The position numbers and the translations under genes are program-made. The notes beneath the pieces are model-generated. The model did not search any database. It was not told the origin of the DNA and saw only the letters and a list, made by a program, of their open reading frames with translations. 64,000 bases of DNA from Cenarchaeum sp. (GTDB lineage: Archaea > Thermoproteota > Nitrososphaeria > Nitrososphaerales > Nitrosopumilaceae). The first letter of the stretch is position 1, and every line of letters begins with the position of its first letter. Below, piece after piece: positions 19,017-31,338 of the stretch. The DNA lies in assembly GCA_965242695.1 (NCBI GenBank), contig CBDESU010000002.1, positions 960,001 through 1,024,000 of the forward strand, given 5' to 3'.

Positions 19017-20657
19017 ATGACGGTCAGCGGAATGCTGGTCTGCGAAAAGTGCGGAAAGAGCAAGGGCAGACGCCCCCGCCGCGGGCGGTGGGGGACGAGA
19101 CGCAGGCGGAGGAGAAAGGGCGCTAGGATGCGCGGGGGCGCAATAGCCGGCGCCTTGGTTGTGGCAGCTGTCGTCGGGATATTGGTCATGCCAGGCAGCC
19201 TAGAGATCTTTGAGGATCTGATTTCCTCTGGCGATCCGCTCGAGTCGTTGCGCGGCGACCCGCACCCGAGCTCCGAGACCCCTCCCGATTCGGGAGACGA
19301 TGCGCCGCCTCGCGCGCCCGACGGATCGTCCGGCGATCCCCGGAGCGCAATAGACCTCTTGTCGGACACAGTCTGGCCTGCCTCGCCCCTTGACTCCGAC
19401 TGGAACATGTCGTCGTCGCCGGGATCATTCGAGGTGCAGCTAGCAAGGTTCAAGGGGCAAGGTGGTAGGCCAGATGTGCTCAAGCGGGTGCTGATCCTCG
19501 ACTCCCCCACGGAGCTGTCGTTCAGCTTTGGCGATCAGAGCCGCACACACAGCCACTTTCTACTGGACACGTGGTACGAGAATCGAGGGCTGGCAGAGCT
19601 TGACAAGCGCGATACGGCCCAGGGCTTCGGAGGCACGTCACTAGCGGCCAACACGTCCCGCCCCCAGCATTTGGCAGACGGCAAAATTTGGCACACGCGT
19701 GCCGACGTACCGCCCCGGGATTCGGATCTAGTCGAGTCGCTGGTGGAAGCAGCCTACGACAGGTCCGCCTCCCTGGACCGCCTATACAACGTAGCGCTTG
19801 ATGCCATAAACGACCACAGGACGGCGATGGGTCGAGAGCCGGTGCAGCTTAGCGACAACACCGCGGCCCAGATGCACGCGCAGGATGTACTAGAGCAGCT
19901 GGCCATATCGCACTACATGTCCAACGGCGAAAAGCCGTACATGACGTACAGTATGACCGGCGGCGCCGGGTACGTAGCGCAGAACGTGGCGTTCGGCGGC
20001 TACGACCGGCCATGGCAGTGCGGCGGCTACGTCATATGCACAAAGATCGATCCGGCTACCGACATACTCGCGCACCACAACGGGATGATGTTCGACGACG
20101 CCCACGCCGACTGGGGGCACCGCGACAACATACTGGATCCCTACCACACGCACGTGAGCCTGGGGGTGGCCTACACCGACTACACGCTCGTCTTCGTACA
20201 GAACTTTGAGACCCGCCGCATCGAGGGCGTCGGCCCCACTGGTGGCCCCGCCAACCCCGTATCGCTGGACGGCGCGGGGCGGATCACGGTAGCCGGCAGT
20301 ATGGATGCGGGGCTAGGCGTGCACTCCATTGACGTGTACTATGATCCGCTGCCGTCGACTAGGACGTACAGAATGCATGCGAACGACATGTCGTACGGCC
20401 TTGGAGATCCCATAGCGTACGTCTACGAGCCACACCCATACGGGTACATCTCAATGGGCAAAACCATCATCATGGCGGATCGCTGGAATACGTCTGGAGG
20501 CACGGTTCTTATCGAGTTCGACGCGCCCGCAGGCATGTCAAAGAACGGAGCCTATACGTTCTACGTCTGGCTGACGGATGGCATACGCCCCCCATTCACG
20601 GGAACCTCAAAGACCTTCTTGGTGGGCGATCCAGCTGGTTTCAGAACACCGTGGTAG
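19017..20657 (+). CDS. CAP/SCP domain membrane protein with additional domains
   Basis: IN.HR...G, AQMHAQD, ISHY, AQNVA, WGHRDNILDPYHTHVSLGVA, QNFE; N-terminal CEKCG, Arg run, TM. Confidence 0.88.
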   Translation: MTVSGMLVCEKCGKSKGRRPRRGRWGTRRRRRRKGARMRGGAIAGALVVAAVVGILVMPGSLEIFEDLISSGDPLESLRGDPHPSSETPPDSGDDAPPRAPDGSSGDPRSAIDLLSDTVWPASPLDSDWNMSSSPGSFEVQLARFKGQGGRPDVLKRVLILDSPTELSFSFGDQSRTHSHFLLDTWYENRGLAELDKRDTAQGFGGTSLAANTSRPQHLADGKIWHTRADVPPRDSDLVESLVEAAYDRSASLDRLYNVALDAINDHRTAMGREPVQLSDNTAAQMHAQDVLEQLAISHYMSNGEKPYMTYSMTGGAGYVAQNVAFGGYDRPWQCGGYVICTKIDPATDILAHHNGMMFDDAHADWGHRDNILDPYHTHVSLGVAYTDYTLVFVQNFETRRIEGVGPTGGPANPVSLDGAGRITVAGSMDAGLGVHSIDVYYDPLPSTRTYRMHANDMSYGLGDPIAYVYEPHPYGYISMGKTIIMADRWNTSGGTVLIEFDAPAGMSKNGAYTFYVWLTDGIRPPFTGTSKTFLVGDPAGFRTPW

Positions 20658-20921
20658 GGCTTCGGCTTGTCGTGTAGCGACAGGCTTTGCTACGGGGGTG
20701 TTGAACTGCGGCGGCGTGGCCCGGAAGACGGCGCCGGACTCTTGGCGCCCGCCAGCCCTGCCTCTCCGCCTAGGGCATGGCGACGCTCGGGCATGTCCAG
20801 CCCTGTCCGCCCCCGGCGCTTTTAAGCAGGCATTCTACACCCTGATTCACAAAAGAACTGTGTCATACATTCGAGTCTCTGGTGCCCGCCACGCGCCCTC
20901 GCCGGTATTGTTCACGTCATA

Positions 20922-22233
20922 AAGATTTGACTTATTTTACCCAAACTATTTGACGCGGTCAGGGTCTGCAAACAGTGGGATGTATTTTTTGGGCGACTTC
21001 GGTACCGGTTGATCGCCGTATTTGCGGATTATATAATTCAACGCTCCTTCTTTACCATGTCGATTTTTTCTTCGCTTTATGTTTCGCCTGTATGCATACG
21101 GACTTCTCAATAGATATTTCCAAAGGTTGAGGCGAGGGTTTAACATAGTGTTAAGGTATCTTAGTGTCTTCCGCCTCTTTTTTGTAATACTTGAAAAATA
21201 TTCATCATAGAACTCGGCAAGCTTGGTTTGGCGCCAATTTGCCTCCTGTAGACTCAAGTATGACGACCCCGGTGGAAGATAAAATATGATTATCATGTTT
21301 TCCATCTTGTCAATGAAATCCTTTAGTTTCTTGGACTTGTGCCATCCTGCGTTGTCAGAGATCACCACGATTGGGCCGAATTCTTCGACCGCTTTTTTCA
21401 AAAGCTTGATGACACCATCAGTGTTGGCTGCGTCGTACATAACGTTGCAATGCCGAGCAACGCCATTTTTGTCGGGCTCGGTGGTCAGTCCCAGTGCGAC
21501 ACACTTGGAACCCTCTCCAATGTAGGGCACCTTGACGGCCTCGCCCGGGGGCGACCAGTAGATCAGCTTGCCGTTCGCGTCTTGGTATACTATCATCTCG
21601 TCCTCGATCACCACTAGATAACCCTCTTTTTTGAGCGCCAAAATCTGGGGTAGGACCACTTTGCGCCAGTAGTAGACCTCGTGCGGTTCGGGCGATCCAA
21701 CGTGTGCCTTCTCTGCCTTCTTTCCGGTCAGGCCTTCCTCGTGCAGTATGCGCAGGGCCTGCCTTTTGGACATTCTTAACTTGCACAGTTTGTACATTTC
21801 AGTGATAAGCTTGCGGGGGGTAATACGACCGCCGTTTTTCTTGATATTTTTGATCGCCTTTTTGACCAGTTTGCGATCATAAACGTGCGGTCGTCCCTGC
21901 CCGCCCTTATCGTACAGCCCGTTGACCCCCTTCAAGGTGAATCTTTTCATGTAATTTCTGACCGAACCTGTGGATACGCTTAGCTCTTCCGCGGTCATTT
22001 TGCAGGCCTTTGTTTTTTTCATTTTTGATTTTTTGATCTTTACGCGAACAGAATTAACAACTAGCATTCTTTTTAGAGCCCTTGGATCTTTCTCCACCTT
22101 GATTGCTCTTTGGAGATTTCCTAACCTCATTGCCCGCCGACGCTCAGCGGGGTCTATTATATCTAGGCCTGCGTCCAAATGCCTAGAATGAAAAATTGAG
22201 TATCAGCTTTTTAGTATAAATGATTAAAATCTA
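20922..22233 (-). mobile_element. IS630-family insertion sequence
   Basis: Low-GC segment; imperfect 24-bp terminal inverted repeats 20922-20945 and 22210-22233 (16/24 by manual alignment), right end finishing in TA. Confidence 0.75.
20946..22178 (-). CDS. IS630-family DDE transposase
   Basis: HTH with GVNGLYDK..GRP; DDE residues in VIEDE, ISDNAGWHKS, YLPPGSSYLSLQEANW. Confidence 0.9.
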   Translation of the reverse strand: MDAGLDIIDPAERRRAMRLGNLQRAIKVEKDPRALKRMLVVNSVRVKIKKSKMKKTKACKMTAEELSVSTGSVRNYMKRFTLKGVNGLYDKGGQGRPHVYDRKLVKKAIKNIKKNGGRITPRKLITEMYKLCKLRMSKRQALRILHEEGLTGKKAEKAHVGSPEPHEVYYWRKVVLPQILALKKEGYLVVIEDEMIVYQDANGKLIYWSPPGEAVKVPYIGEGSKCVALGLTTEPDKNGVARHCNVMYDAANTDGVIKLLKKAVEEFGPIVVISDNAGWHKSKKLKDFIDKMENMIIIFYLPPGSSYLSLQEANWRQTKLAEFYDEYFSSITKKRRKTLRYLNTMLNPRLNLWKYLLRSPYAYRRNIKRRKNRHGKEGALNYIIRKYGDQPVPKSPKKYIPLFADPDRVK

Positions 22234-22548
22234 TGGAATCAATTGATATCAAATCAAGTCCTGGGTGGAGTGTATGCAACCACATCGTCTGCAATCGATC
22301 GTTAATGGTTGATGGTTGGCTTGCTTCACAATTAGTGTCAAAACTTTATGTCCTAAACAATACGTGGTGCGACGGTGACTATTCTAGGCTACATTGGTGG
22401 TTGGCTAGTGGCATTGCGCTTATAATACGGGAATAATCACTCCGGGCATGTATGCAGGAAGCGGGACCGCGGGGATGGTGGATGCCATGATCAGTATGTC
22501 ATCCACGTCTCGATGCTTGGCCTGTACAACAAAAGACGGTGTACACTT

Positions 22549-24039
22549 ATGAGAACAGGCGGGCGCGGGACAGGAACGCGGCGCCCGGCCACGGGCGGGC
22601 GCGGGACAGGAACGCGGCGCCCGGCCACGGGCGGGCGCGGGACAGGAACGCGGCGCCCGGCCACGGGCGGGCGCGGGACAGGAACGCGGCGCCCGGCCAC
22701 GGGCGGGCGCGGGACAGGAACGCGGCGCCCGGCCACGGGCGGGCGCGGGACTACCAAGCGTCAGGTACATTATCTGGTCGAATTCCGGTTTCATGGAGTG
22801 GCCAAGGAGATGATGCGAGATATCACATTCAACGTGCAGAAGTTTTTTAGGGAGCCCCAACAACGCGCATCGCAACATCGAATGGTGCCACATATGACGT
22901 TAGCTGGTCCGCTGACAACGGAAGATGAGGGCAGGCTTGTACGGGAAGTCGTGTCCATATGTGAGAAATATCAAATTATCAAATTTCAGTTATCCGGATT
23001 TGACAAATTTGATGACCGAGTAATTCATGTAAAAGTCAATCCGTCACCTTTGTTAATTTCTTTCCAAAAAGGGATTGTGAGAAGACTAAAAGATTTTTGT
23101 GAAATGAGTGAACATGACGATCCCAATCGCACTTTTAGATTCCACGTCACGCTTTATAAGAATAAGGATGGGATACGAAACTTTCATAAAATTTGGAATT
23201 TTGTTAACACGTTTCGCATTCCAGAATTTGATCTACATCTGGCTCGTGTCACAATATTAAAAAATGGCCGCATTCTTTGCGAGCATGATCTCATACTTGA
23301 AAAGACCCTTGACCGGCGCGAAGCACTGAGTAACACTCTGGATGAAAAAACCGATCGTCGTCTAGCAGAGGTTGTCGTCCCGCCTACTATTGAATACCTC
23401 CAAATCGACGATCGGGAGAAAGTCTACGTGATTAGTGACCTACACTTTGATCACACAAACATAATCCGGTACTGCGAGCGCCCGTTTTCAAATACAGACG
23501 AAATGAACCGCAAGATGGTGGAAAAATGGACCAACACGGTGGAGTACAACGACAAGGTATTTTTCCTCGGTGACATGACATACGGCACGAATAAGCATCG
23601 CAACAGGGTTCATCGGCCAATTGACTTCTGGCTTCAAATGCTCACCGGTAATATCAGGTTTATACGCGGTAACCACGATACGGGAATCATAACCAAAGCA
23701 AAAGTTATTCCAACTCACTACGGTATTATGTACCAAGGGCATAAATTCCTGCTAGCGCACGATCCGTACCGCCCCGACGGGTTTGACGGGTGGCTTATAC
23801 ACGGGGACAAGCACAACAACGATCTAGATCGATACCCCTTTGTCAACCAGAAAAGAAAAACGATAAATGTCTGTGCCGAGCTTATTGACTACGAGCCGAT
23901 ATCCCTAGATTCTCTTGTTGAGATAATCGACACAGGTAGGCCCCATCGTGCCTTGAAGCCTGCCCCTCGGCGCGCAAATCGCGTGTTAGAGGGGACTAGG
24001 GGGGCGGGCGGGCGGAGAAATCGGCCTCGGCGGGGCTAG
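22549..24039 (+). CDS. Fusion of 2H phosphoesterase (LigT/2'-5' RNA ligase-like) and calcineurin-like metallophosphoesterase
   Basis: HxT motifs PHMTL and FHVTL; SDLHFDH, LGD, GNHD, H.P, IHGDKH; low GC; start uncertain because of an N-terminal repeat. Confidence 0.85.
   Translation: MRTGGRGTGTRRPATGGRGTGTRRPATGGRGTGTRRPATGGRGTGTRRPATGGRGTGTRRPATGGRGTTKRQVHYLVEFRFHGVAKEMMRDITFNVQKFFREPQQRASQHRMVPHMTLAGPLTTEDEGRLVREVVSICEKYQIIKFQLSGFDKFDDRVIHVKVNPSPLLISFQKGIVRRLKDFCEMSEHDDPNRTFRFHVTLYKNKDGIRNFHKIWNFVNTFRIPEFDLHLARVTILKNGRILCEHDLILEKTLDRREALSNTLDEKTDRRLAEVVVPPTIEYLQIDDREKVYVISDLHFDHTNIIRYCERPFSNTDEMNRKMVEKWTNTVEYNDKVFFLGDMTYGTNKHRNRVHRPIDFWLQMLTGNIRFIRGNHDTGIITKAKVIPTHYGIMYQGHKFLLAHDPYRPDGFDGWLIHGDKHNNDLDRYPFVNQKRKTINVCAELIDYEPISLDSLVEIIDTGRPHRALKPAPRRANRVLEGTRGAGGRRNRPRRG
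22558..22751. repeat. 36-bp perfect tandem repeat, 5 copies plus partial
   Basis: GGGCGCGGGACAGGAACGCGGCGCCCGGCCACGGGC at 22561, 22597, 22633, 22669, 22705, partial 22741; encodes TGGRGTGTRRPA. Confidence 0.95.
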
Positions 24040-25364: not shown

Positions 25365-25796
25365 ATGGACGGCGGGAATGCAGGGCAGGTGCAGCGGCAA
25401 GAGGGCGCCGGCGGGGGAGACGCCGCGCCCCGGGCGGCAAAGCGGGAGTTCATCCGGCTCGCCGAGCAGGGAAAGGTGCTCGCGCGCAAGTGCGCAAAGT
25501 GCGGCCGCCTCGACCTGGCGACGGCCTACTTTTGCCGCCTGTGCGGAGGCGGCGAGTTCGTCGATGCGGTGCTGGAGGGGCGCGGCCGGGTCGCCACGTA
25601 CACGATAATTACGGTGCCGCCCGAGGGGTTCGAGGGGCACACCCCGTACGCGTGGGTCGTGCTGGACCTTGACGGCTGCGACCTGCGCCTGTCGGGGTTC
25701 ATGGCGGGGATAGGCTCGCCGGCCGACCTGCCCGTCGGCACGCCCGCCAGGGTCGTCGGGCGCGACGAGCGGGGCGTCGTAATCGAGACCGTATAG
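25365..25796 (+). CDS. DUF35-type Zn-ribbon/OB-fold protein (thiolase partner)
   Basis: KCAKCG..CRLCG, G.G.V.TYT.I..PP.GF..PY..V.V.L; directly after the thiolase. Confidence 0.9.
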   Translation: MDGGNAGQVQRQEGAGGGDAAPRAAKREFIRLAEQGKVLARKCAKCGRLDLATAYFCRLCGGGEFVDAVLEGRGRVATYTIITVPPEGFEGHTPYAWVVLDLDGCDLRLSGFMAGIGSPADLPVGTPARVVGRDERGVVIETV

Positions 25797-25847
25797 GGGG
25801 TGAGACAGGATGGCCCGCCGCCGCAAGCCATACAGGATCTGGTTGCC

Positions 25848-26009
25848 ATGCCCATAGAGGTCGCCTGCGGCAAGTGCGGCGCAGTCATCGACACCATGAG
25901 GATGCTAAAGTCCGTCAAGGAGGTTGCAAGAAAGCACGGGGGCCGCTGCCCGTCGTGCGGGCAGGCCCTGTCGACGACCGACTTTGTGGTCGAGGCGGAC
26001 GAGCGGTAG
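25848..26009 (+). CDS. Small zinc-ribbon protein
   Basis: CGKCG...CPSCG, 53 aa. Confidence 0.75.
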   Translation: MPIEVACGKCGAVIDTMRMLKSVKEVARKHGGRCPSCGQALSTTDFVVEADER

Positions 26010-26092
26010 AGCCGGCCGAGTCCGGTCTCTTCCCCCTCCCGCCCCGGGCCCCCTCTAAAGTCTTATTTAGTCCGGCTTTCGATCGCCGCCGA

Positions 26093-28171
26093 ATGGCGCT
26101 GCACAGCGGGGTTGTAGAGCATAAAAGGGCGGAAATTCCGGCCACTCCCCGCCGCGTCCGAATGATCTTTTCGGTAATGGCAAGCCCGAGCCGCATCGAC
26201 ATCCTCCGCATACTCAACGCGCGCGGGATGATGTCGTACTCTGACCTCAAGGCGCTCGCGGGGTTCAGGTCGAAGAAGGAGAGCGGCAAGTTCGCGTACC
26301 ACCTGCGCAAGCTGTCCAAGCAGTCGCTCGTCGCGCTCAACAAGACGGAGAAGCGCTACGCGCTGACCAACCTCGGCAAGCTCGTGCTGAGCCTCGCCAA
26401 GCAGATCGAGGAGAGGTCGGTCGTCGAGAGCAGCAAGCTCTACGTGCGGACGTCGATCGACTCGATCGACGAGTTCCAGGCCACGCGCATAACGCAGTCG
26501 CTCTCGCGCGAGGCAGGGATGCCGCCGGACCTGGCCGAAAAGATCACAGAGGCCGTCGAGTCGCGCATATACAACATCCAGCCGACCTACGTGACGGGAT
26601 CGCTCATCCGCGACATGGCCAACGCCGTCCTGCTCGAGCAGGGGCACGAAGAGTACCTCTCAAAGCTCGCCAGGTTCGGGATGCCGGCGCACGACGTGCA
26701 GGAGATGCTGTCAAACGTCGACCGCATCGACCGCGGCTCCGAGGGCGTCCTGTCGATGACTGGAAAGACCGTGCTCGCCGAGCGCCTCTTGTCCAGCGTC
26801 CTGCCAAAGGACGTCGCCGACCAGCACTACTCGGGCGACCTGCACATCGACGGGCCCGGCACGTGGTCGCTCCTGCCCGACACCGTATTCGTCAGCCTGC
26901 GCGAGCTCGTCTCGGACGGCCTCGACCTCGGGGGCAAGTTCCTCGGCACCTCGCGCGTGCCGGCCCCAAAGACCCTCTCCGAGACGCTCACCGCGGTGTC
27001 GATGGCCGTCGCGATGGTCTCGAGGGAGGCCGCGCACGAGGTCGTGCTCGACGGGCTGCAGCACCTGCTAGCCAGGCATGCAAAGGACCCCGGCCTTGAG
27101 GAGGGGCTCGCCTGCGCGCTCGCCTCGTCGTCCGCGTCGTCCGTGCACGGCACGGGGCTGCCGCGCATCTCGCTGCGCGTGGCGCTCGGCAGCGAGACGC
27201 GGGCGGTCGCCGCGATCATGGCCGCCTACGCGCGGTACGCGAGGATCACGCCGCTGCCCAACGTCTGCCTCGTCGTCGACCGGTCGCGCGGCCGGCTGTC
27301 CGACTGCGCCGGCGCGCTAGCCGAGGCCGTCTCGCTAGGGGGGCGCGTCATGCTCGCCAAGGGCGCCTCGTCGAGCGCGGGCCTCTCGCACGAGCTCGCC
27401 AGGGAGTCGCCCCTGTCGATAAACCTCCAGTCCGTCTCGCTGAACCTGCCGCGCCTGGCAATAGAGTCGAACAAGGACGAGACGTACTTTAGGGCCCGCG
27501 TCGCGCTGCTCATGCCGCCGGCCCTGCTGGCCATGTCGCAGCGCAAGAAGGAGATATCCGACCTGACGAGGCGCGGCCTGAACCCGCTGCTTGCCCGCAC
27601 CACGCAGTACATGCAGCGCGGCAAGGTCTCGCTCGTCGTCAACCTGACGGGCCTGCAGGAGGCCGTCGCAGGGTTCCTGGGGTACGGGGACACCGGGGAG
27701 GGGCGCGCCGTCATGCACAGGGTGGTCGAGACGGCCGTCGACACGGCCGCCAAGAAGTCCAAGGAGCTCGGCGAGGACGTGCGCGTGTGCATCGCCGAGA
27801 CGGCGGGGTCGTCGCGCTTTGTAGAGCTGGACGGACAAAAGTACAAGAAGGGCGAGGTCGTCGCCGTCGCCGGGTCCGGATCGTACTCGGACTGCGCCGT
27901 CCTCGACGCCTCGGCGGACTACTTCAAGGACGACATCGAGATATCCGAGTACAACCGCCTGGCGTCCGAGCTCACCGGGGGGCTTATGGTGCGCCTCGAC
28001 ATGGGGGAGCGCCGCTCGCCGGACGAGATAAGGCGGGCAATCGCAAAGTTCTCGCCCCTGCTGCCGTCGTTCATGCCCGCCGTGCGCGTGCCGATCTGCG
28101 GCGCGTGCGGCTACAAGGACGCGGCGATCTCGGAAAAGTGCCCGCAGTGCCGCTCGCCGTACATCATATAG
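26093..28171 (+). CDS. ArsR-like wHTH + ATP-cone + degenerate class III RNR (NrdD-like) fusion
   Basis: SPSRIDILRIL..MSYSDLK..GKFAYHLRKL..YALT.LG (wHTH); VRTS...EF....ITQSL.REAG (ATP-cone); HYSGDLHI, SLNLPRLA, GLQEA, C-terminal CxxC-CxxC; no glycyl-radical RxxGY. Confidence 0.85.
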   Translation: MALHSGVVEHKRAEIPATPRRVRMIFSVMASPSRIDILRILNARGMMSYSDLKALAGFRSKKESGKFAYHLRKLSKQSLVALNKTEKRYALTNLGKLVLSLAKQIEERSVVESSKLYVRTSIDSIDEFQATRITQSLSREAGMPPDLAEKITEAVESRIYNIQPTYVTGSLIRDMANAVLLEQGHEEYLSKLARFGMPAHDVQEMLSNVDRIDRGSEGVLSMTGKTVLAERLLSSVLPKDVADQHYSGDLHIDGPGTWSLLPDTVFVSLRELVSDGLDLGGKFLGTSRVPAPKTLSETLTAVSMAVAMVSREAAHEVVLDGLQHLLARHAKDPGLEEGLACALASSSASSVHGTGLPRISLRVALGSETRAVAAIMAAYARYARITPLPNVCLVVDRSRGRLSDCAGALAEAVSLGGRVMLAKGASSSAGLSHELARESPLSINLQSVSLNLPRLAIESNKDETYFRARVALLMPPALLAMSQRKKEISDLTRRGLNPLLARTTQYMQRGKVSLVVNLTGLQEAVAGFLGYGDTGEGRAVMHRVVETAVDTAAKKSKELGEDVRVCIAETAGSSRFVELDGQKYKKGEVVAVAGSGSYSDCAVLDASADYFKDDIEISEYNRLASELTGGLMVRLDMGERRSPDEIRRAIAKFSPLLPSFMPAVRVPICGACGYKDAAISEKCPQCRSPYII

Positions 28172-28237
28172 TACGACTCTCACCACTCATCCTCTTCCTC
28201 CTGGCCTCCCGAGCTGGCCGTCCGGCCCGAGCTGCAC

Positions 28238-28535
28238 CGCGGCCCGGCCCGGCCCGGCCCGGCCCGCCTCCCCGGCCCGGCCCGGCCCGCCTCCCCGGCC
28301 CGGCCCGGCCCGCCTCCCCGGCCCGGCCCGCCTCCCCGGCCCGGCCCGGCCCGGCCCGGCCCGCCTCCCCGGCCTCTCAGCCGCTCCCCGGCCCGGCCCC
28401 CTCCCCGGGGCGATCGCACCTCCCCGCCCGGCCCCGGCCCGGCCCCCTCCCCGGGGCGATCGCACCTCCCCGCCCGGCCCCGGCCCCCCTTCCCCGGCCC
28501 GGCCCCTGCCCCGCCGCCGGCCCCCTCCCGCCCCT
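28238..28535. repeat. C/G low-complexity (GCCCG)n-type repeat region
   Basis: Many copies of GGCCC/GCCCG and CCTCCCCGGCCC; duplicated GGGCGATCGCACCTCCC. Confidence 0.85.
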
Positions 28536-28550
28536 AAGACCCCCCACGGT

Positions 28551-28611
28551 GGTCAGCTAAGTTTGACCTACCGCCGGCCCCAAAACTGACCTGAGAATTG
28601 AAAACCTTATA
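28551..28611 (+). promoter_or_regulatory. nrdJ promoter with candidate operator
   Basis: GGTCA-N8-TGACC at 28551-28568, extra TGACC at 28587-28591, BRE/TATA-like GAAAACCTTATA at 28600-28611. Confidence 0.55.
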
Positions 28612-28644
28612 CGCGGCCGTTTGGCCGGCCCGCTTGCGATCCCC

Positions 28645-31338
28645 ATGGGAAGTTCCACCGTTGAGAGCAGCATCGTCAAAATCAAGAAGCGCAGCGGCTC
28701 GGTCGTCAGCTTTGACGCCTCCAAGATCTCCGGGGCCATCTTCAAGGCCCTGGCCGCCATGTCCAAGCCCGACCGCTCCCTGGCCGACGAGCTGGCCTCT
28801 AGCGTCGTCAGCAAGCTGGCCCTCAAGAACTTCACGGCCTACAACCCCCCCAGCGTCGAGGACATACAGGACATGGTAGAGTCGACGCTCATCGAGAGCG
28901 GCCACAGCGAGATCGCCAAGGCGTACATACTGTACAGGGCCGAGCGCCGCCACGTCCGCGACGAGAAGCTAAAGGTCCTCAACGCAAAGGCCCTCGACCC
29001 CGTCTCGAAGGACTTTGACCTGTCGTGCCTGCAGGTGCTCGCCTCGCGCTACCTGCTCCGCAACGAAAAGAACGAGATCAGGGAGACGCCGTCCGCGCTG
29101 TTCGGGCGCGTCGCGACCCTCGTCGCGCTCGGCGACCTGCTGTACGACCCCGAGCTGTACTCGGCGGCCGGCGGGCACGAGCAGGACGCCGGCGAGGCCA
29201 GGGCGTACCTCTCAAAGCTCGACGGGTTCGACGGCAAGTTCGCAATCGGGCCGCACGTCCTCAACAAGTACCACTTTAGGTCGCTCATAAACCACTACAT
29301 CTACCTGGCCTCGGGCGGCCGCATGAGGGTCGGCTTCAAGGAGCTGCTCACGTCGCTGGCGTCTAAGGGGTTCGAAAAGTACGCCGAGAGGATAGACGAG
29401 TACTATGCGCTGATGACCTCGCAGGTGTTCCTGCCCAACTCGCCGACGATGATGAACGCCGGCGGGAGGCTCGGCCAGCTGTCGGCCTGCTTCGTCCTCG
29501 GGATGCCCGACGACATGGAGGGAATAATGAAGTCGACGTCGGACGCGGCCCTGATATTCAAGAGCGGCGGCGGCGTGGGGATAAACTACTCGGACCTGCG
29601 GCACGAGGGCGACATCGTCGCATCCACGTCCGGCGTCGCGTCCGGCCCCGTCTCTTTCATGAACATCATAAACACCGTGACCGAGGTCGTAAAGCAGGGC
29701 GGCAAGCGCAGGGGCGCGAACATGGGTATAATCGAGGCGTGGCACCCGGACGTCGAGAAATTCATCACGAACAAGACGAGCCCCGGCGTCCTGGAGAACT
29801 TCAACGTCAGCGTCGGCGTGTGGGAGGACTTTTGGGCCGCCCTTGTCGGCTCGCCAGAGGGCAAGTACATGCTCAGGGACGCGCGCACGAGGGCGCCCGT
29901 CCGCGAGGAGAGCGCCCACCAGGTGCTCGACCTTATCGCGCTGTCGGCGTGGAAGAGCGCCGAGCCGGGCCTCATCTTCTTCGATCAGATCAACAAGTAC
30001 AACGTGATGGCAAAGGCGAGGGGGGGGCCGCTACGCTCGACGAACCCCTGCGGCGAGCAGAGCCTGTACCCGTACGAGTCGTGCAATCTGGGCTCGATAA
30101 ACCTGGCAAGGCTGGTGACCCGCACGGCCGACGGCGGGTACGCGTTCGACTGGCAAAAGTACGAAGAGACCATACGCAAGACGACGAGGTACCTGGACAA
30201 CATAATCGACGTCAACCTGTACCCCATACCCGAGATCGACGAGGCATCAAAGGAGTCGCGCCGGATAGGCCTCGGCGTGATGGGCGTCGCCGACCTGCTG
30301 TACAAGCTGCGCATCCCGTACAACTCGAAGGAGAGCTACGACCTCCAGTCGAAGCTCGCCGAGGCCCTCACGTACTTTTCAATGGAGGAGAGCGTCGAGC
30401 TTGCGCGCACGCGCGGCGAGTTCCCGCTGTGCCCGCAGACAGAGTACCCCGAGGGCAAGATTCCCGTGGCCGGCTACTACGAGCGCCCGCGCGAGTCGCA
30501 CACGTACGACTGGGACGCGCTCATCGAAAAGATCAAGAAGCACGGCATACGCAACGTCCTGACGACGACGGTCGCGCCGACCGGGACGCTGTCGATGCTG
30601 GCAGGCTGCTCTAGCGGAATGGAGCCGAACTTTGCCCTGTCGTACGAGAAGCGCGTGACGGTCGGCAAGTTCTTCTACACGAACAAGATCGTAGAGGAGG
30701 CGCTCATGGAGCAGGGCCTGTACACGGACGATCTAGCATCCAAGATCGCCGAGAACTACGGCTCGGTGCGCGGGATAGAGGAGGTGCCGGAGTGGATGCA
30801 GAAGGTGTTCGTGACCGCGATGGACATTCACTGGTCGGACCACCTGCTAGCGCAGGGCGTATGGCAGGAGTGGATCGGCAACGCGATCGCAAAGACGATC
30901 AACATGCCGTACGACGCGTCCGTCACGGACGTAAAGGCCGCCTACCTGCTCGCGCACGAGCTCGGCCTAAAGGGGATCACCGTCTACAGGGACGGCTCGC
31001 GCCACACGCAGGTCCTCAACATGGCGAGCGAGAGCGCCGAGAAAAAGTTCGACGTGGAGCCGAGCGAGCACGTAGTGTCGTACGCGTCCGGCCTGCTCGA
31101 GAACTCGTACGTCAAGGAGCAGGTCTCGGCGGCCCTGAGCGTAAGGCCGTCGGCGCAGGCGGCCGCTGCAGCGGCCGCGGCCGCGGGCGGCGGCGAGACC
31201 ATCGCCGCCGAGCACGTCTCGGTAGACGCAAAGACCGAGGGGCGCAGGCGCTGCCCGTCGTGCAACAGCGACATGGTCTTCGCCGAGGGGTGCAGCATGT
31301 GCATCGACTGCGGCTTTAGCGGCTGCTCGTCGGCGTAG
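28645..31338 (+). CDS. nrdJ: Adenosylcobalamin-dependent (class II) ribonucleotide reductase with N-terminal ATP-cone
   Basis: IKKRSG..V.FD..KI ATP-cone; PNSPT.MNAG, QLSACFV, GGKRRGANM, TNPCGE, ESCNLGSINL, APTGT, KGITVYRDGSR; C-terminal Zn finger. Confidence 0.97.
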   Translation: MGSSTVESSIVKIKKRSGSVVSFDASKISGAIFKALAAMSKPDRSLADELASSVVSKLALKNFTAYNPPSVEDIQDMVESTLIESGHSEIAKAYILYRAERRHVRDEKLKVLNAKALDPVSKDFDLSCLQVLASRYLLRNEKNEIRETPSALFGRVATLVALGDLLYDPELYSAAGGHEQDAGEARAYLSKLDGFDGKFAIGPHVLNKYHFRSLINHYIYLASGGRMRVGFKELLTSLASKGFEKYAERIDEYYALMTSQVFLPNSPTMMNAGGRLGQLSACFVLGMPDDMEGIMKSTSDAALIFKSGGGVGINYSDLRHEGDIVASTSGVASGPVSFMNIINTVTEVVKQGGKRRGANMGIIEAWHPDVEKFITNKTSPGVLENFNVSVGVWEDFWAALVGSPEGKYMLRDARTRAPVREESAHQVLDLIALSAWKSAEPGLIFFDQINKYNVMAKARGGPLRSTNPCGEQSLYPYESCNLGSINLARLVTRTADGGYAFDWQKYEETIRKTTRYLDNIIDVNLYPIPEIDEASKESRRIGLGVMGVADLLYKLRIPYNSKESYDLQSKLAEALTYFSMEESVELARTRGEFPLCPQTEYPEGKIPVAGYYERPRESHTYDWDALIEKIKKHGIRNVLTTTVAPTGTLSMLAGCSSGMEPNFALSYEKRVTVGKFFYTNKIVEEALMEQGLYTDDLASKIAENYGSVRGIEEVPEWMQKVFVTAMDIHWSDHLLAQGVWQEWIGNAIAKTINMPYDASVTDVKAAYLLAHELGLKGITVYRDGSRHTQVLNMASESAEKKFDVEPSEHVVSYASGLLENSYVKEQVSAALSVRPSAQAAAAAAAAAGGGETIAAEHVSVDAKTEGRRRCPSCNSDMVFAEGCSMCIDCGFSGCSSA

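Follow-up and report, generated by a model that had tools for sequence, protein, structure and literature searches.

We analyzed a 64,000-nucleotide (nt) stretch of a Cenarchaeum sp. genome (GenBank assembly GCA_965242695.1, contig CBDESU010000002.1, positions 960,001 to 1,024,000 of the forward strand), referred to below as the window, in which a protein-coding gene at 26093-28171 lies upstream of nrdJ, the gene for a class II ribonucleotide reductase (RNR). The encoded protein joins a winged helix-turn-helix (wHTH) domain and an ATP-cone to the remains of NrdD, the class III (anaerobic) RNR. An earlier note, made from the sequence of the window alone, had read it as a class III RNR that lost catalysis and became a nucleotide-sensing transcription factor for its neighbor. 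The observation was confirmed, and the interpretation was borne out in part, comparative evidence supporting its outline well.

Architecture and fold of the protein encoded upstream of nrdJ

The two genes contain the following features, given in positions of the window:

26063-26069, forward strand: TATA-like box TTATTTA of the putative regulator gene, 24 nt before the ATG
26093-28171, forward strand: coding sequence of the wHTH/ATP-cone/dead-NrdD protein, 692 amino acids (aa) plus stop (TAG at 28169-28171)
26150-26428, forward strand: ArsR/SmtB-like wHTH (Pfam DUF7347/HTH_20), aa 20-112
26435-26692, forward strand: ATP-cone, aa 115-200
26693-28072, forward strand: NrdD-fold core without catalytic residues, aa 201-660
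27368-27382, forward strand: finger-loop remnant SSSAG, aa 426-430, without Cys
28073-28168, forward strand: C-terminal Cys4 zinc ribbon of the NrdD type (C669, C672, C683, C686)
28645-31338, forward strand: nrdJ, class II (B12-dependent) RNR with an N-terminal ATP-cone (TIGR02504, 703 bits)

The reading frame is open from a GTG at 25874 on the forward strand, and the ATG at 26093 is the likely start. The TATA-like box is part of a block, AAGTCTTATTTAG, that is kept in relatives upstream of the orthologous genes (28 orthologous loci compared). Because this box stands only 24 nt before the ATG, the distance suggests that the mRNA is leaderless or nearly so.

Pfam recovered all three domains read by the earlier note (ArsR-like wHTH, ATP-cone and NrdD-like core), and the motifs it quoted (HYSGDLHI, SLNLPRLA, GLQEA, CGAC...CPQC, PDT and SSSAG) are all found in the translation. 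The DUF7347 wHTH matched residues 25-99 with 42.2 bits (cut-off 27.6), and the classical ArsR-type models fell below their cut-offs for this domain (HTH_20, 24.1 against 27 bits; NF033788, 24.2 against 55). By sequence, the N-terminal domain also matched SmtB and HlyU chains, the latter through the N-terminus of a family profile with an expectation value (E) of about 5e-4. Its recognition helix is probably ESGKFAYHLRKL. The NRDD match (81.6 bits, E 6.9e-23) fell mainly on the second half of the Pfam profile, with the best stretch placing residues 414-687 on profile positions 261-528 of 562. The NCBIfam equivalog for NrdD, TIGR02487, scored 68 bits, far under its cut-off of 326.35. The four zinc-ribbon cysteines (C669, C672, C683 and C686) are invariant or nearly so in the family.

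Homology to class III RNR was clearest at the level of the family. A single-sequence search of the PDB gave weak NrdD matches (E 0.012), and a family profile was needed; run against PDB chains, a profile of 74 members matched solved class III RNRs over the whole core, from S. thermophilus 9d3x (3.1e-39) and P. copri 8p23 (6.9e-38) to T. maritima 4coi (1.1e-34) and phage T4 1h78 (6.3e-31). The structure prediction proposed in the earlier note returned the class III RNR fold: the AlphaFold2 model (mean predicted local distance difference test, pLDDT, 90.0; predicted template modeling score, pTM, 0.79) has a four-helix-plus-wing domain, a cone and a barrel. The predicted topology of the wHTH is helix-helix-helix-helix-strand-strand-helix, with helices at 20-29, 32-44, 49-56 and 61-76 and strands at 80-83 and 88-91 (pLDDT 88-97). 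In Foldseek searches the top PDB matches to the model were class III RNRs (E 2.7e-20 to 1e-12, template modeling score up to 0.67 by target length), and class I RNRs came far lower (about 1e-8 to 1e-7). The ten-stranded alpha/beta barrel core of class III RNR was found by Pfam NRDD, by the family profile and by Foldseek. As judged from these sequence matches and the predicted structure, the protein is an NrdD by descent and by fold.

Loss of catalysis, origin and linkage to RNR genes

Both catalytic cysteines and the glycyl-radical domain of NrdD are missing from this protein. In the alignment, E. coli C175 corresponds to T264 of the PDT motif, the thiyl-radical C384 has no Cys counterpart in a finger loop shortened to ASSSAG, and the chain ends six residues past the last zinc-ribbon Cys, with the RVxGY glycyl-radical segment absent.

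We traced these losses through the family. A word-based search returned more than 3900 relatives, among them Nitrosopumilus proteins of about 57% identity and the same architecture, and an exhaustive search gave 960 clusters at E of 1e-3 or below. The clusters include long forms of 740-800 residues that match NRDD over its full length (212-307 bits) and carry a C-terminal tail. A genome scan with the long forms found 572 loci, and the best 80 of these make up our Bathyarchaeial set (76 come from records titled Bathyarchaeia, Bathyarchaeota, Bathyarchaeum or Bathyarchaeales). These longer relatives, mostly in metagenome-assembled genomes of Bathyarchaeia, kept the C-terminal tail and lost the radical Gly in all 80. 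Catalytic residues were counted in 136 sequences (E. coli numbering), leaving out four of the 31 paralogues that were shorter than 650 aa, one of the 29 Nitrososphaerales proteins (L035, frameshifted, 492 aa) and L025:

C175: Cys in 27 of 27 true NrdD paralogues (Bathyarchaeia), 0 of 80 Bathyarchaeial putative regulators, 0 of 28 Nitrososphaerales proteins
C384: Cys in 27 of 27 true NrdD paralogues (Bathyarchaeia), 18 of 80 Bathyarchaeial putative regulators, 0 of 28 Nitrososphaerales proteins
G681: Gly in 27 of 27 true NrdD paralogues, 0 of 80 Bathyarchaeial putative regulators (Ala in 41); 27 of 28 Nitrososphaerales proteins end before this position and one has Ser

The 18 long forms that keep the finger-loop Cys (…TATGCRF…; L048, L050-L052 and 14 others) have lost the Gly and the second Cys, and from their sequences they look like intermediate stages of inactivation.

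The activase is missing as well. In the window's own genome, which is 96% complete, we found no NrdG (best scores 29.8 against 126 bits for TIGR02491 and 37.5 against 131 for TIGR02495), no second NRDD locus and no NrdR (TIGR00244 had no match at E of 1 or below, this gene included). Across the order, one of 41 genomes scored above the NrdG2 cut-off and one of 41 above the NrdD cut-off, and both are the same genome, G039. Absence of nrdG, which the earlier note had proposed to check across Nitrososphaeria, held in 40 of the 41 genomes searched and failed in this one, where G039:C30:1-2030 carries an adjacent true nrdD-nrdG pair (457 and 198 bits, over cut-off) and the genome also has the putative regulator and a class II-like RNR. 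A tblastn search of the 80 Bathyarchaeia loci with E. coli NrdG gave no match, the query being too distant to show absence.

Many databases name the protein as a working anaerobic RNR, in keeping with its NRDD match above the Pfam cut-off; the Nitrosopumilus proteins carry the public names "anaerobic ribonucleoside-triphosphate reductase" or "helix-turn-helix domain-containing protein", a mis-annotation that the earlier note had foreseen. Against this reading stand the loss of the radical Gly domain and of both catalytic Cys, a genome without NrdG, and the equivalog score of 68 against 326 bits. Its probability is close to nil and, judged from sequence, it stands refuted: the protein cannot be a glycyl-radical reductase. 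The earlier description of a dead class III RNR is borne out by the loss of the two Cys and of the Gly domain and by the lack of an activase in the genome.

The dead copies appear to share one origin. In a FastTree tree of 524 core columns, the wHTH-bearing proteins formed one clade (support 0.93) apart from the true NrdDs of Bathyarchaeia (0.89), and within it the Nitrososphaerales proteins were monophyletic (1.0) on a long branch. To us the tree points to a single ancient event of duplication and fusion, after which evolution of the former enzyme was relaxed; the root is weak, as the tree was rooted on a single E. coli sequence. The family profile matched 162 of 201 sampled Thermoproteota genomes at 1e-20, a count that includes true NrdDs, and some families were unmatched.

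Gene order ties the protein to ribonucleotide reduction. An orthologue occurs in 40 of the 41 genomes of the order, and coordinates of orthologues and class II RNR genes (with G037 checked by Pfam) show that in 37 of these 40 the gene immediately following on the same strand encodes a class II RNR. The three exceptions are a divergent but adjacent pair (G009), a contig break that leaves the order undecidable (G021) and a genome in which no RNR was found (G025). The link to the neighboring RNR gene drawn in the earlier note is supported by this synteny, and nrdJ is presumed to be the regulated target of the upstream protein. Among the Bathyarchaeia, 51 of the 80 loci had at least 2600 nt of downstream sequence and could be scored; in 30 of the 51 the next gene is nrdD, encoding a cone-bearing protein without wHTH that ends in SRVTGYY or SRVVGYL. 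Because the gene adjoins an RNR gene of whichever class, the protein would serve ribonucleotide reduction as such. Its retention while the neighbor switches from class III to class II is, from comparative evidence, the strongest argument for such a role.

A candidate operator upstream of the RNR genes

The spacer between the two genes of the window contains these features:

28240-28525: G+C-rich tandem repeats with 5-, 17-, 23- and 46-nt periods, filling the spacer between the putative regulator gene and nrdJ
28551-28568: perfect-armed palindrome GGTCAGCTAAGTTTGACC, the candidate operator and local form of GTCAA-N5/6-TTGA
28587-28591, forward strand: additional TGACC half-site, lying between palindrome and TATA box and shared with the closest relative (G004); identified by eye and weak as evidence
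28607-28611, forward strand: nrdJ TATA box TTATA, aligned with TTTATA of relatives

The palindrome falls inside the stretch singled out by the earlier note (28540-28620) and lies within an island of A+T-richer sequence that follows about 290 nt of G+C-rich tandem repeats. The repeats are probably filler specific to this high-GC lineage. Similar tandem-repeat filler lies between cdvA and thyX elsewhere in the genome (L043), and within the window a perfect, G+C-rich 36-nt unit is repeated 5.4 times between genes at 22558-22751.

In Nitrosopumilaceae, alignment of the spacers shows the block.G.TGT.AA.A...TTGA.C some 30-45 nt ahead of the TTTATA box. In Bathyarchaeia the motif invariably lies in one block, (A/G)TGTCAATTTGnTTGA followed after a few bases by CTTATACAGAATTTTATAC. 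The site thus keeps its position beside TATA-like elements. Counts of GTCAA-N5/6-TTGA and of the same numbers in shuffled sequences were as follows:

Upstream of nrdJ, Nitrososphaerales: exact, 8 of 23 (shuffles: mean 0.07, maximum 1); at most one mismatch, 15 of 23 (mean 1.25, maximum 4)
Spacer between the putative regulator gene and nrdD, Bathyarchaeia: exact, 3 of 36 (mean 0.22, maximum 2); at most one mismatch, 15 of 36 (mean 5.6, maximum 12)
Upstream of the putative regulator gene itself: exact, 0 of 28 (mean 0.05, maximum 1); at most one mismatch, 7 of 28 (mean 1.47, maximum 5)

Chance is a poor explanation for the recurrence of one core and spacing in two classes and ahead of two different RNR genes. 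Between Bathyarchaeia and Nitrososphaeria the probable recognition helix (ES/DAGKFAYHLRKL) has hardly changed. The sole genome of the order without the putative regulator (G029) has no copy of the site in the roughly 1 kb before its RNR gene, which is a single case. An Rfam scan of 25700-28800 found no riboswitch before nrdJ and returned one sub-threshold chance match (psbNH, 25 against 45 bits).

Other elements were observed in the same spacers. A second palindrome, TATGA-N3-TCATA, stands directly upstream of GTCAA-N5-TTGA in six of the 23 nrdJ spacers (L015, L016, L017, L019, L022 and L023), and many Nitrosopumilaceae nrdJ genes start with TTG after GGGGAG. Eight of the 36 Bathyarchaeia spacers (L060, L072, L077, L071, L083, L106, L087 and L105) have another conserved palindrome, CAAAA-N7-TTTTG, and then GAAGAAAAAAAT. 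These elements stand in the long stretch of about 300-400 nt that separates the TATA-like block from nrdD, and they could point to a structured leader or to a further control element.

Palindromes of the same type occur elsewhere in these genomes. A near-copy of the nrdJ palindrome, GGTCAGCTAAAGCTGACC, lies at G000:C1:507970-507987 (L043, 1501-1518), 34 nt upstream of cdvA and divergent from thyX. The two 18-mers match at 15 of 18 positions and account for two of the three exact GGTCA-N8-TGACC sites in the window's own genome. In relatives, palindromes of the type GGTTAGAATAGTTTTACC occupy the same position ahead of cdvA, as judged by eye in 11 of 11 loci that include this gene. The strict motif is also found about 70 nt upstream of orc1/cdc6 in G003 (L126, 1501-1517), and related sequences, AGTCAACATCTTTACACC and GGTCAACAACTTTACACC, were seen by eye at this gene in G000 and G004. 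The orc1/cdc6 sequences (L126, L158 and L159) stand 65-70 nt upstream of the gene, beside repeats that resemble origin recognition boxes (…CCACACACCA…TTCCACTC…). The third exact palindrome, GGTCAAAAAAAGTTGACC, at G000:C1:1182059-1182076 (L044, 1501-1518), is followed about 40 nt later by the TATA-like sequence CTCTTAAG. No clear open reading frame (ORF) follows this site, which may precede a small gene or an RNA. A claim of a regulon from genome-wide palindrome counts was dropped, as the counts were not above control.

Function, rival explanations and comparison with known systems

The ATP-cone is the best-conserved part of the protein, with a column conservation of 0.66 compared with 0.52 for the wHTH and 0.33-0.44, the lowest values, for the former enzyme core and barrel. 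Among short-form relatives the mean identity of the wHTH was 0.61. This pattern is the one expected of a sensor-effector protein and not of an enzyme. Pfam placed the cone (PF03477) at residues 117-190, with relatives scoring 24-40 bits. In the alignment, its hairpin reads V118-R119-T120-S121 where E. coli has V-M-K-R (canonically V-x-K-R), and R119 is kept in the family together with Y188, R189/K191 and R194 of the last helix. Because these residues are kept while V-x-K-R reads V-R-T-S, nucleotide binding by the cone is plausible, and the ligand need not be ATP or dATP. In the available text on PcNrdD, triphosphates are held by Lys7, Arg8, Arg87 and Arg91 (PMC11226230).

A two-copy fold of residues 1-490 predicted a homodimer, with an interaction prediction score from aligned errors (ipSAE) of 0.63 against 0.00 for the best of three controls; among proteins of solved structure, 20 of 30 pairs reached this mark, as did 1 of 23 single chains. 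Agreement of contacts between runs was 67% or more, and the partner pLDDT was at least 67. The predicted interface is symmetric and spans aa 189-235, 281-312 and 334-350 (the end of the cone, helix 215-236, hairpin 281-290, and helices 295-312 and 334-350). This contact is similar to that of the NrdD dimers already solved, and the result may reflect likeness to them. A two-fold dimer of this kind would fit a palindromic operator.

Given the architecture, the catalytic death, the RNR synteny in two classes, the shared cis-element and the domain conservation, we consider the protein to be a transcription regulator of RNR genes that is dimeric and probably responds to nucleotides, analogous in function but not homologous to NrdR, with a probability of roughly 60%; DNA binding, ligand sensing and the direction of control are the parts that we infer. 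For the pseudoenzyme transcription factor of the earlier note, the dead NrdD, the wHTH and cone and the RNR linkage were supported, the last also by the shared spacer palindrome, and the cone proved atypical. The proposed history has a single origin, in which a class III RNR gene (nrdD with ATP-cone) would have been duplicated and fused to an ArsR-like wHTH. The copy would then have lost its radical chemistry and, in Nitrososphaerales, the whole glycyl-radical domain, while retaining the NrdD dimer, the zinc ribbon and the cone. The homodimer would set its two wHTH domains on GTCAA-N5/6-TTGA between its own gene and the RNR gene, about 35-50 nt upstream of the RNR TATA box. Adenine or deoxy-nucleotides in the cone, and possibly in the former effector or substrate sites, would shift its conformation or oligomeric state and thereby adjust RNR transcription. 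The site stands some 50 nt before the TATA box, a distance that in archaea is more typical of activators than of repressors. Because the site is upstream of the promoter, its position favors activation, or repression through a higher-order assembly, over simple promoter occlusion.

Several results weigh against this regulator. No RNR gene lies directly downstream in 21 of the 51 scored Bathyarchaeia loci (tblastn screen), although in one of the 21 (L124) an nrdJ-like gene follows some 1.3 kb farther on. Because the cone is marginal in Pfam (27.8 against a cut-off of 25.8 bits) and the Lys-Arg pair of phosphate-binding basic residues is replaced, binding of ATP or dATP is uncertain. As to the operator, GGTCA-N8-TGACC was not significantly enriched in the 3.9-Mb genome (three exact sites against two of the reversed control), and five relatives had 11 sites against four in the control, with five of the 11 being the nrdJ sites used to build the pattern. 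The spacer of the window's palindrome is 1 nt longer than in most relatives, and the site stands well upstream of the TATA box, unlike NrdR boxes. The palindrome could also belong to another factor, with similar ones before cdvA/thyX and orc1/cdc6. The related genomes are not independent, and shuffle controls overstate significance. Autoregulation through the palindrome was considered and rejected, with none of the 28 loci having an exact site upstream of the protein's own gene.

The sites before other genes raise the question of specificity. The protein could be the DNA-binding regulator of a wider DNA-synthesis and cell-cycle regulon (nrdJ, thyX, cdvA and orc1/cdc6), as the cdvA/thyX near-copy, the same-type site in 11 of 11 cdvA loci and the sequences before orc1/cdc6 in three genomes would suggest; but the genome-wide counts do not exceed control, the sites at cdvA and orc1, which were assessed by eye, differ from the nrdJ consensus, genomes of this kind often contain AT-rich palindromes, and strict gene linkage is found only to RNR genes, so that we regard a wider regulon as unlikely. 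A bolder version is more speculative and in our view rather improbable: the dimeric dead reductase would act as a nucleotide-gated master switch of the thaumarchaeal S phase, reading the (d)NTP pool through its cone and its former active and effector sites and coordinating dNTP synthesis (nrdJ, thyX), initiation of replication (orc1/cdc6) and division (cdvA) through one palindrome type. If true, it would provide a metabolic cell-cycle checkpoint for archaea that lack cyclin-dependent kinases. The switch would predate the divergence of Bathyarchaeia from Nitrososphaeria, and its RNR target would have changed from class III to class II as ammonia oxidizers turned aerobic.

Two further rivals place the action of the protein away from DNA. 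It could be a non-transcriptional partner of RNR, such as a pseudo-subunit or nucleotide buffer acting on the activity or assembly of NrdJ or NrdD, with a wHTH that is vestigial or used for protein contacts. Tight gene linkage and the predicted NrdD dimer surface are compatible with such a partner, as is the part played by ATP-cones in protein-protein contacts of inhibited RNR oligomers, described in the available text of PMC11226230. Yet the wHTH is among the best-conserved parts, its recognition-helix segment GKFAYHLRKL is nearly unchanged across two classes, the spacer holds a conserved palindrome, and the partner RNR would have to differ in class between the lineages (II in one, III in the other); we find the proposal doubtful on these grounds. 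The protein could also be an enzyme of different chemistry on an NrdD scaffold. GlyXL offers a precedent, described in the accessible part of its report as an NrdD-like family without radical residues yet with a metabolic role (PMC13759103), and NLPR, AHxSGxxH and like motifs are conserved in the present family. A core that is the least conserved part of the protein, a long branch, a shortened finger loop, the wHTH fusion, and linkage to RNR genes and not to a metabolic operon make an enzyme of this kind very unlikely.

Among known systems, the proposed regulator most resembles NrdR in layout: a DNA-binding module joined to an ATP-cone, a gene often beside nrd genes, dedication to RNR, and paired or palindromic boxes. 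As far as the available text of one source goes, NrdR works by nucleotide-dependent oligomerization, its boxes overlap promoters and it is "rare in archaea" (PMC9110341). The differences are that the DNA-binding parts are not homologous (NrdR has an N-terminal zinc ribbon, whereas this protein has an N-terminal wHTH and a C-terminal NrdD-type ribbon), that this protein is archaeal and carries about 490 extra residues of dead NrdD and a cone without the canonical K-R, and that its candidate site is upstream of the promoter and does not overlap it. With NrdD it shares a homologous core of the same fold, the ATP-cone, the Cys4 zinc ribbon and a predicted NrdD-like dimer, but it lacks the thiyl Cys, the second Cys, the glycyl-radical domain and the activase, has gained a wHTH, and belongs to a lineage of aerobic ammonia oxidizers that use class II RNR. 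Like ArsR/SmtB proteins (HlyU and SmtB), which are dimers on palindromes, it has a matching N-terminal sequence with the helix-helix-helix-helix-wing topology; its putative sensor would be the ATP-cone and former enzyme and not a metal site in a wHTH dimer. GlyXL, compared by description only, is likewise a family of the NrdD fold without conserved radical residues, but its role is in glycine synthesis with an ACT-domain partner, and the accessible part of its report mentions no wHTH or RNR linkage (PMC13759103).

For the control of RNR genes in archaea without NrdR, this family offers a concrete and testable candidate regulator, covering most Nitrososphaerales, including the globally abundant marine ammonia oxidizers, and many Bathyarchaeia. 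The proposed regulator would also be a clean case of neofunctionalization: after duplication, one copy of an essential radical enzyme would have lost its activity and become the sensor module of a transcription factor acting on the pathway it came from, with intermediates surviving in the 18 of 80 Bathyarchaeia copies that keep the loop Cys and in the many with a Gly-less tail. Thousands of entries named "anaerobic ribonucleoside-triphosphate reductase" can mislead on the anaerobic capacity of ammonia-oxidizing archaea. In the full-text literature, a scope that leaves aside subscription journals and notes of the RNRdb type, we found neither a wHTH-cone-NrdD protein nor DUF7347 described, nor any NrdD-like genes of ammonia oxidizers or Bathyarchaeota.

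Some minor features surround the gene in the window. A 53-aa ORF with two CxxC pairs lies just upstream of it (25848-26009, forward strand), and in most Nitrosopumilaceae loci the same small zinc-ribbon gene (…KCPSCGQxLSTSEF…) ends just before the promoter of the putative regulator. Further upstream, positions 20000-24000 form a low-GC island (0.49-0.54 against about 0.68) that contains a transposase-like ORF (20946-22178, reverse strand) and a 508-aa ORF (22513-24039, forward strand), the N-terminus of which is encoded by the 36-nt repeat.

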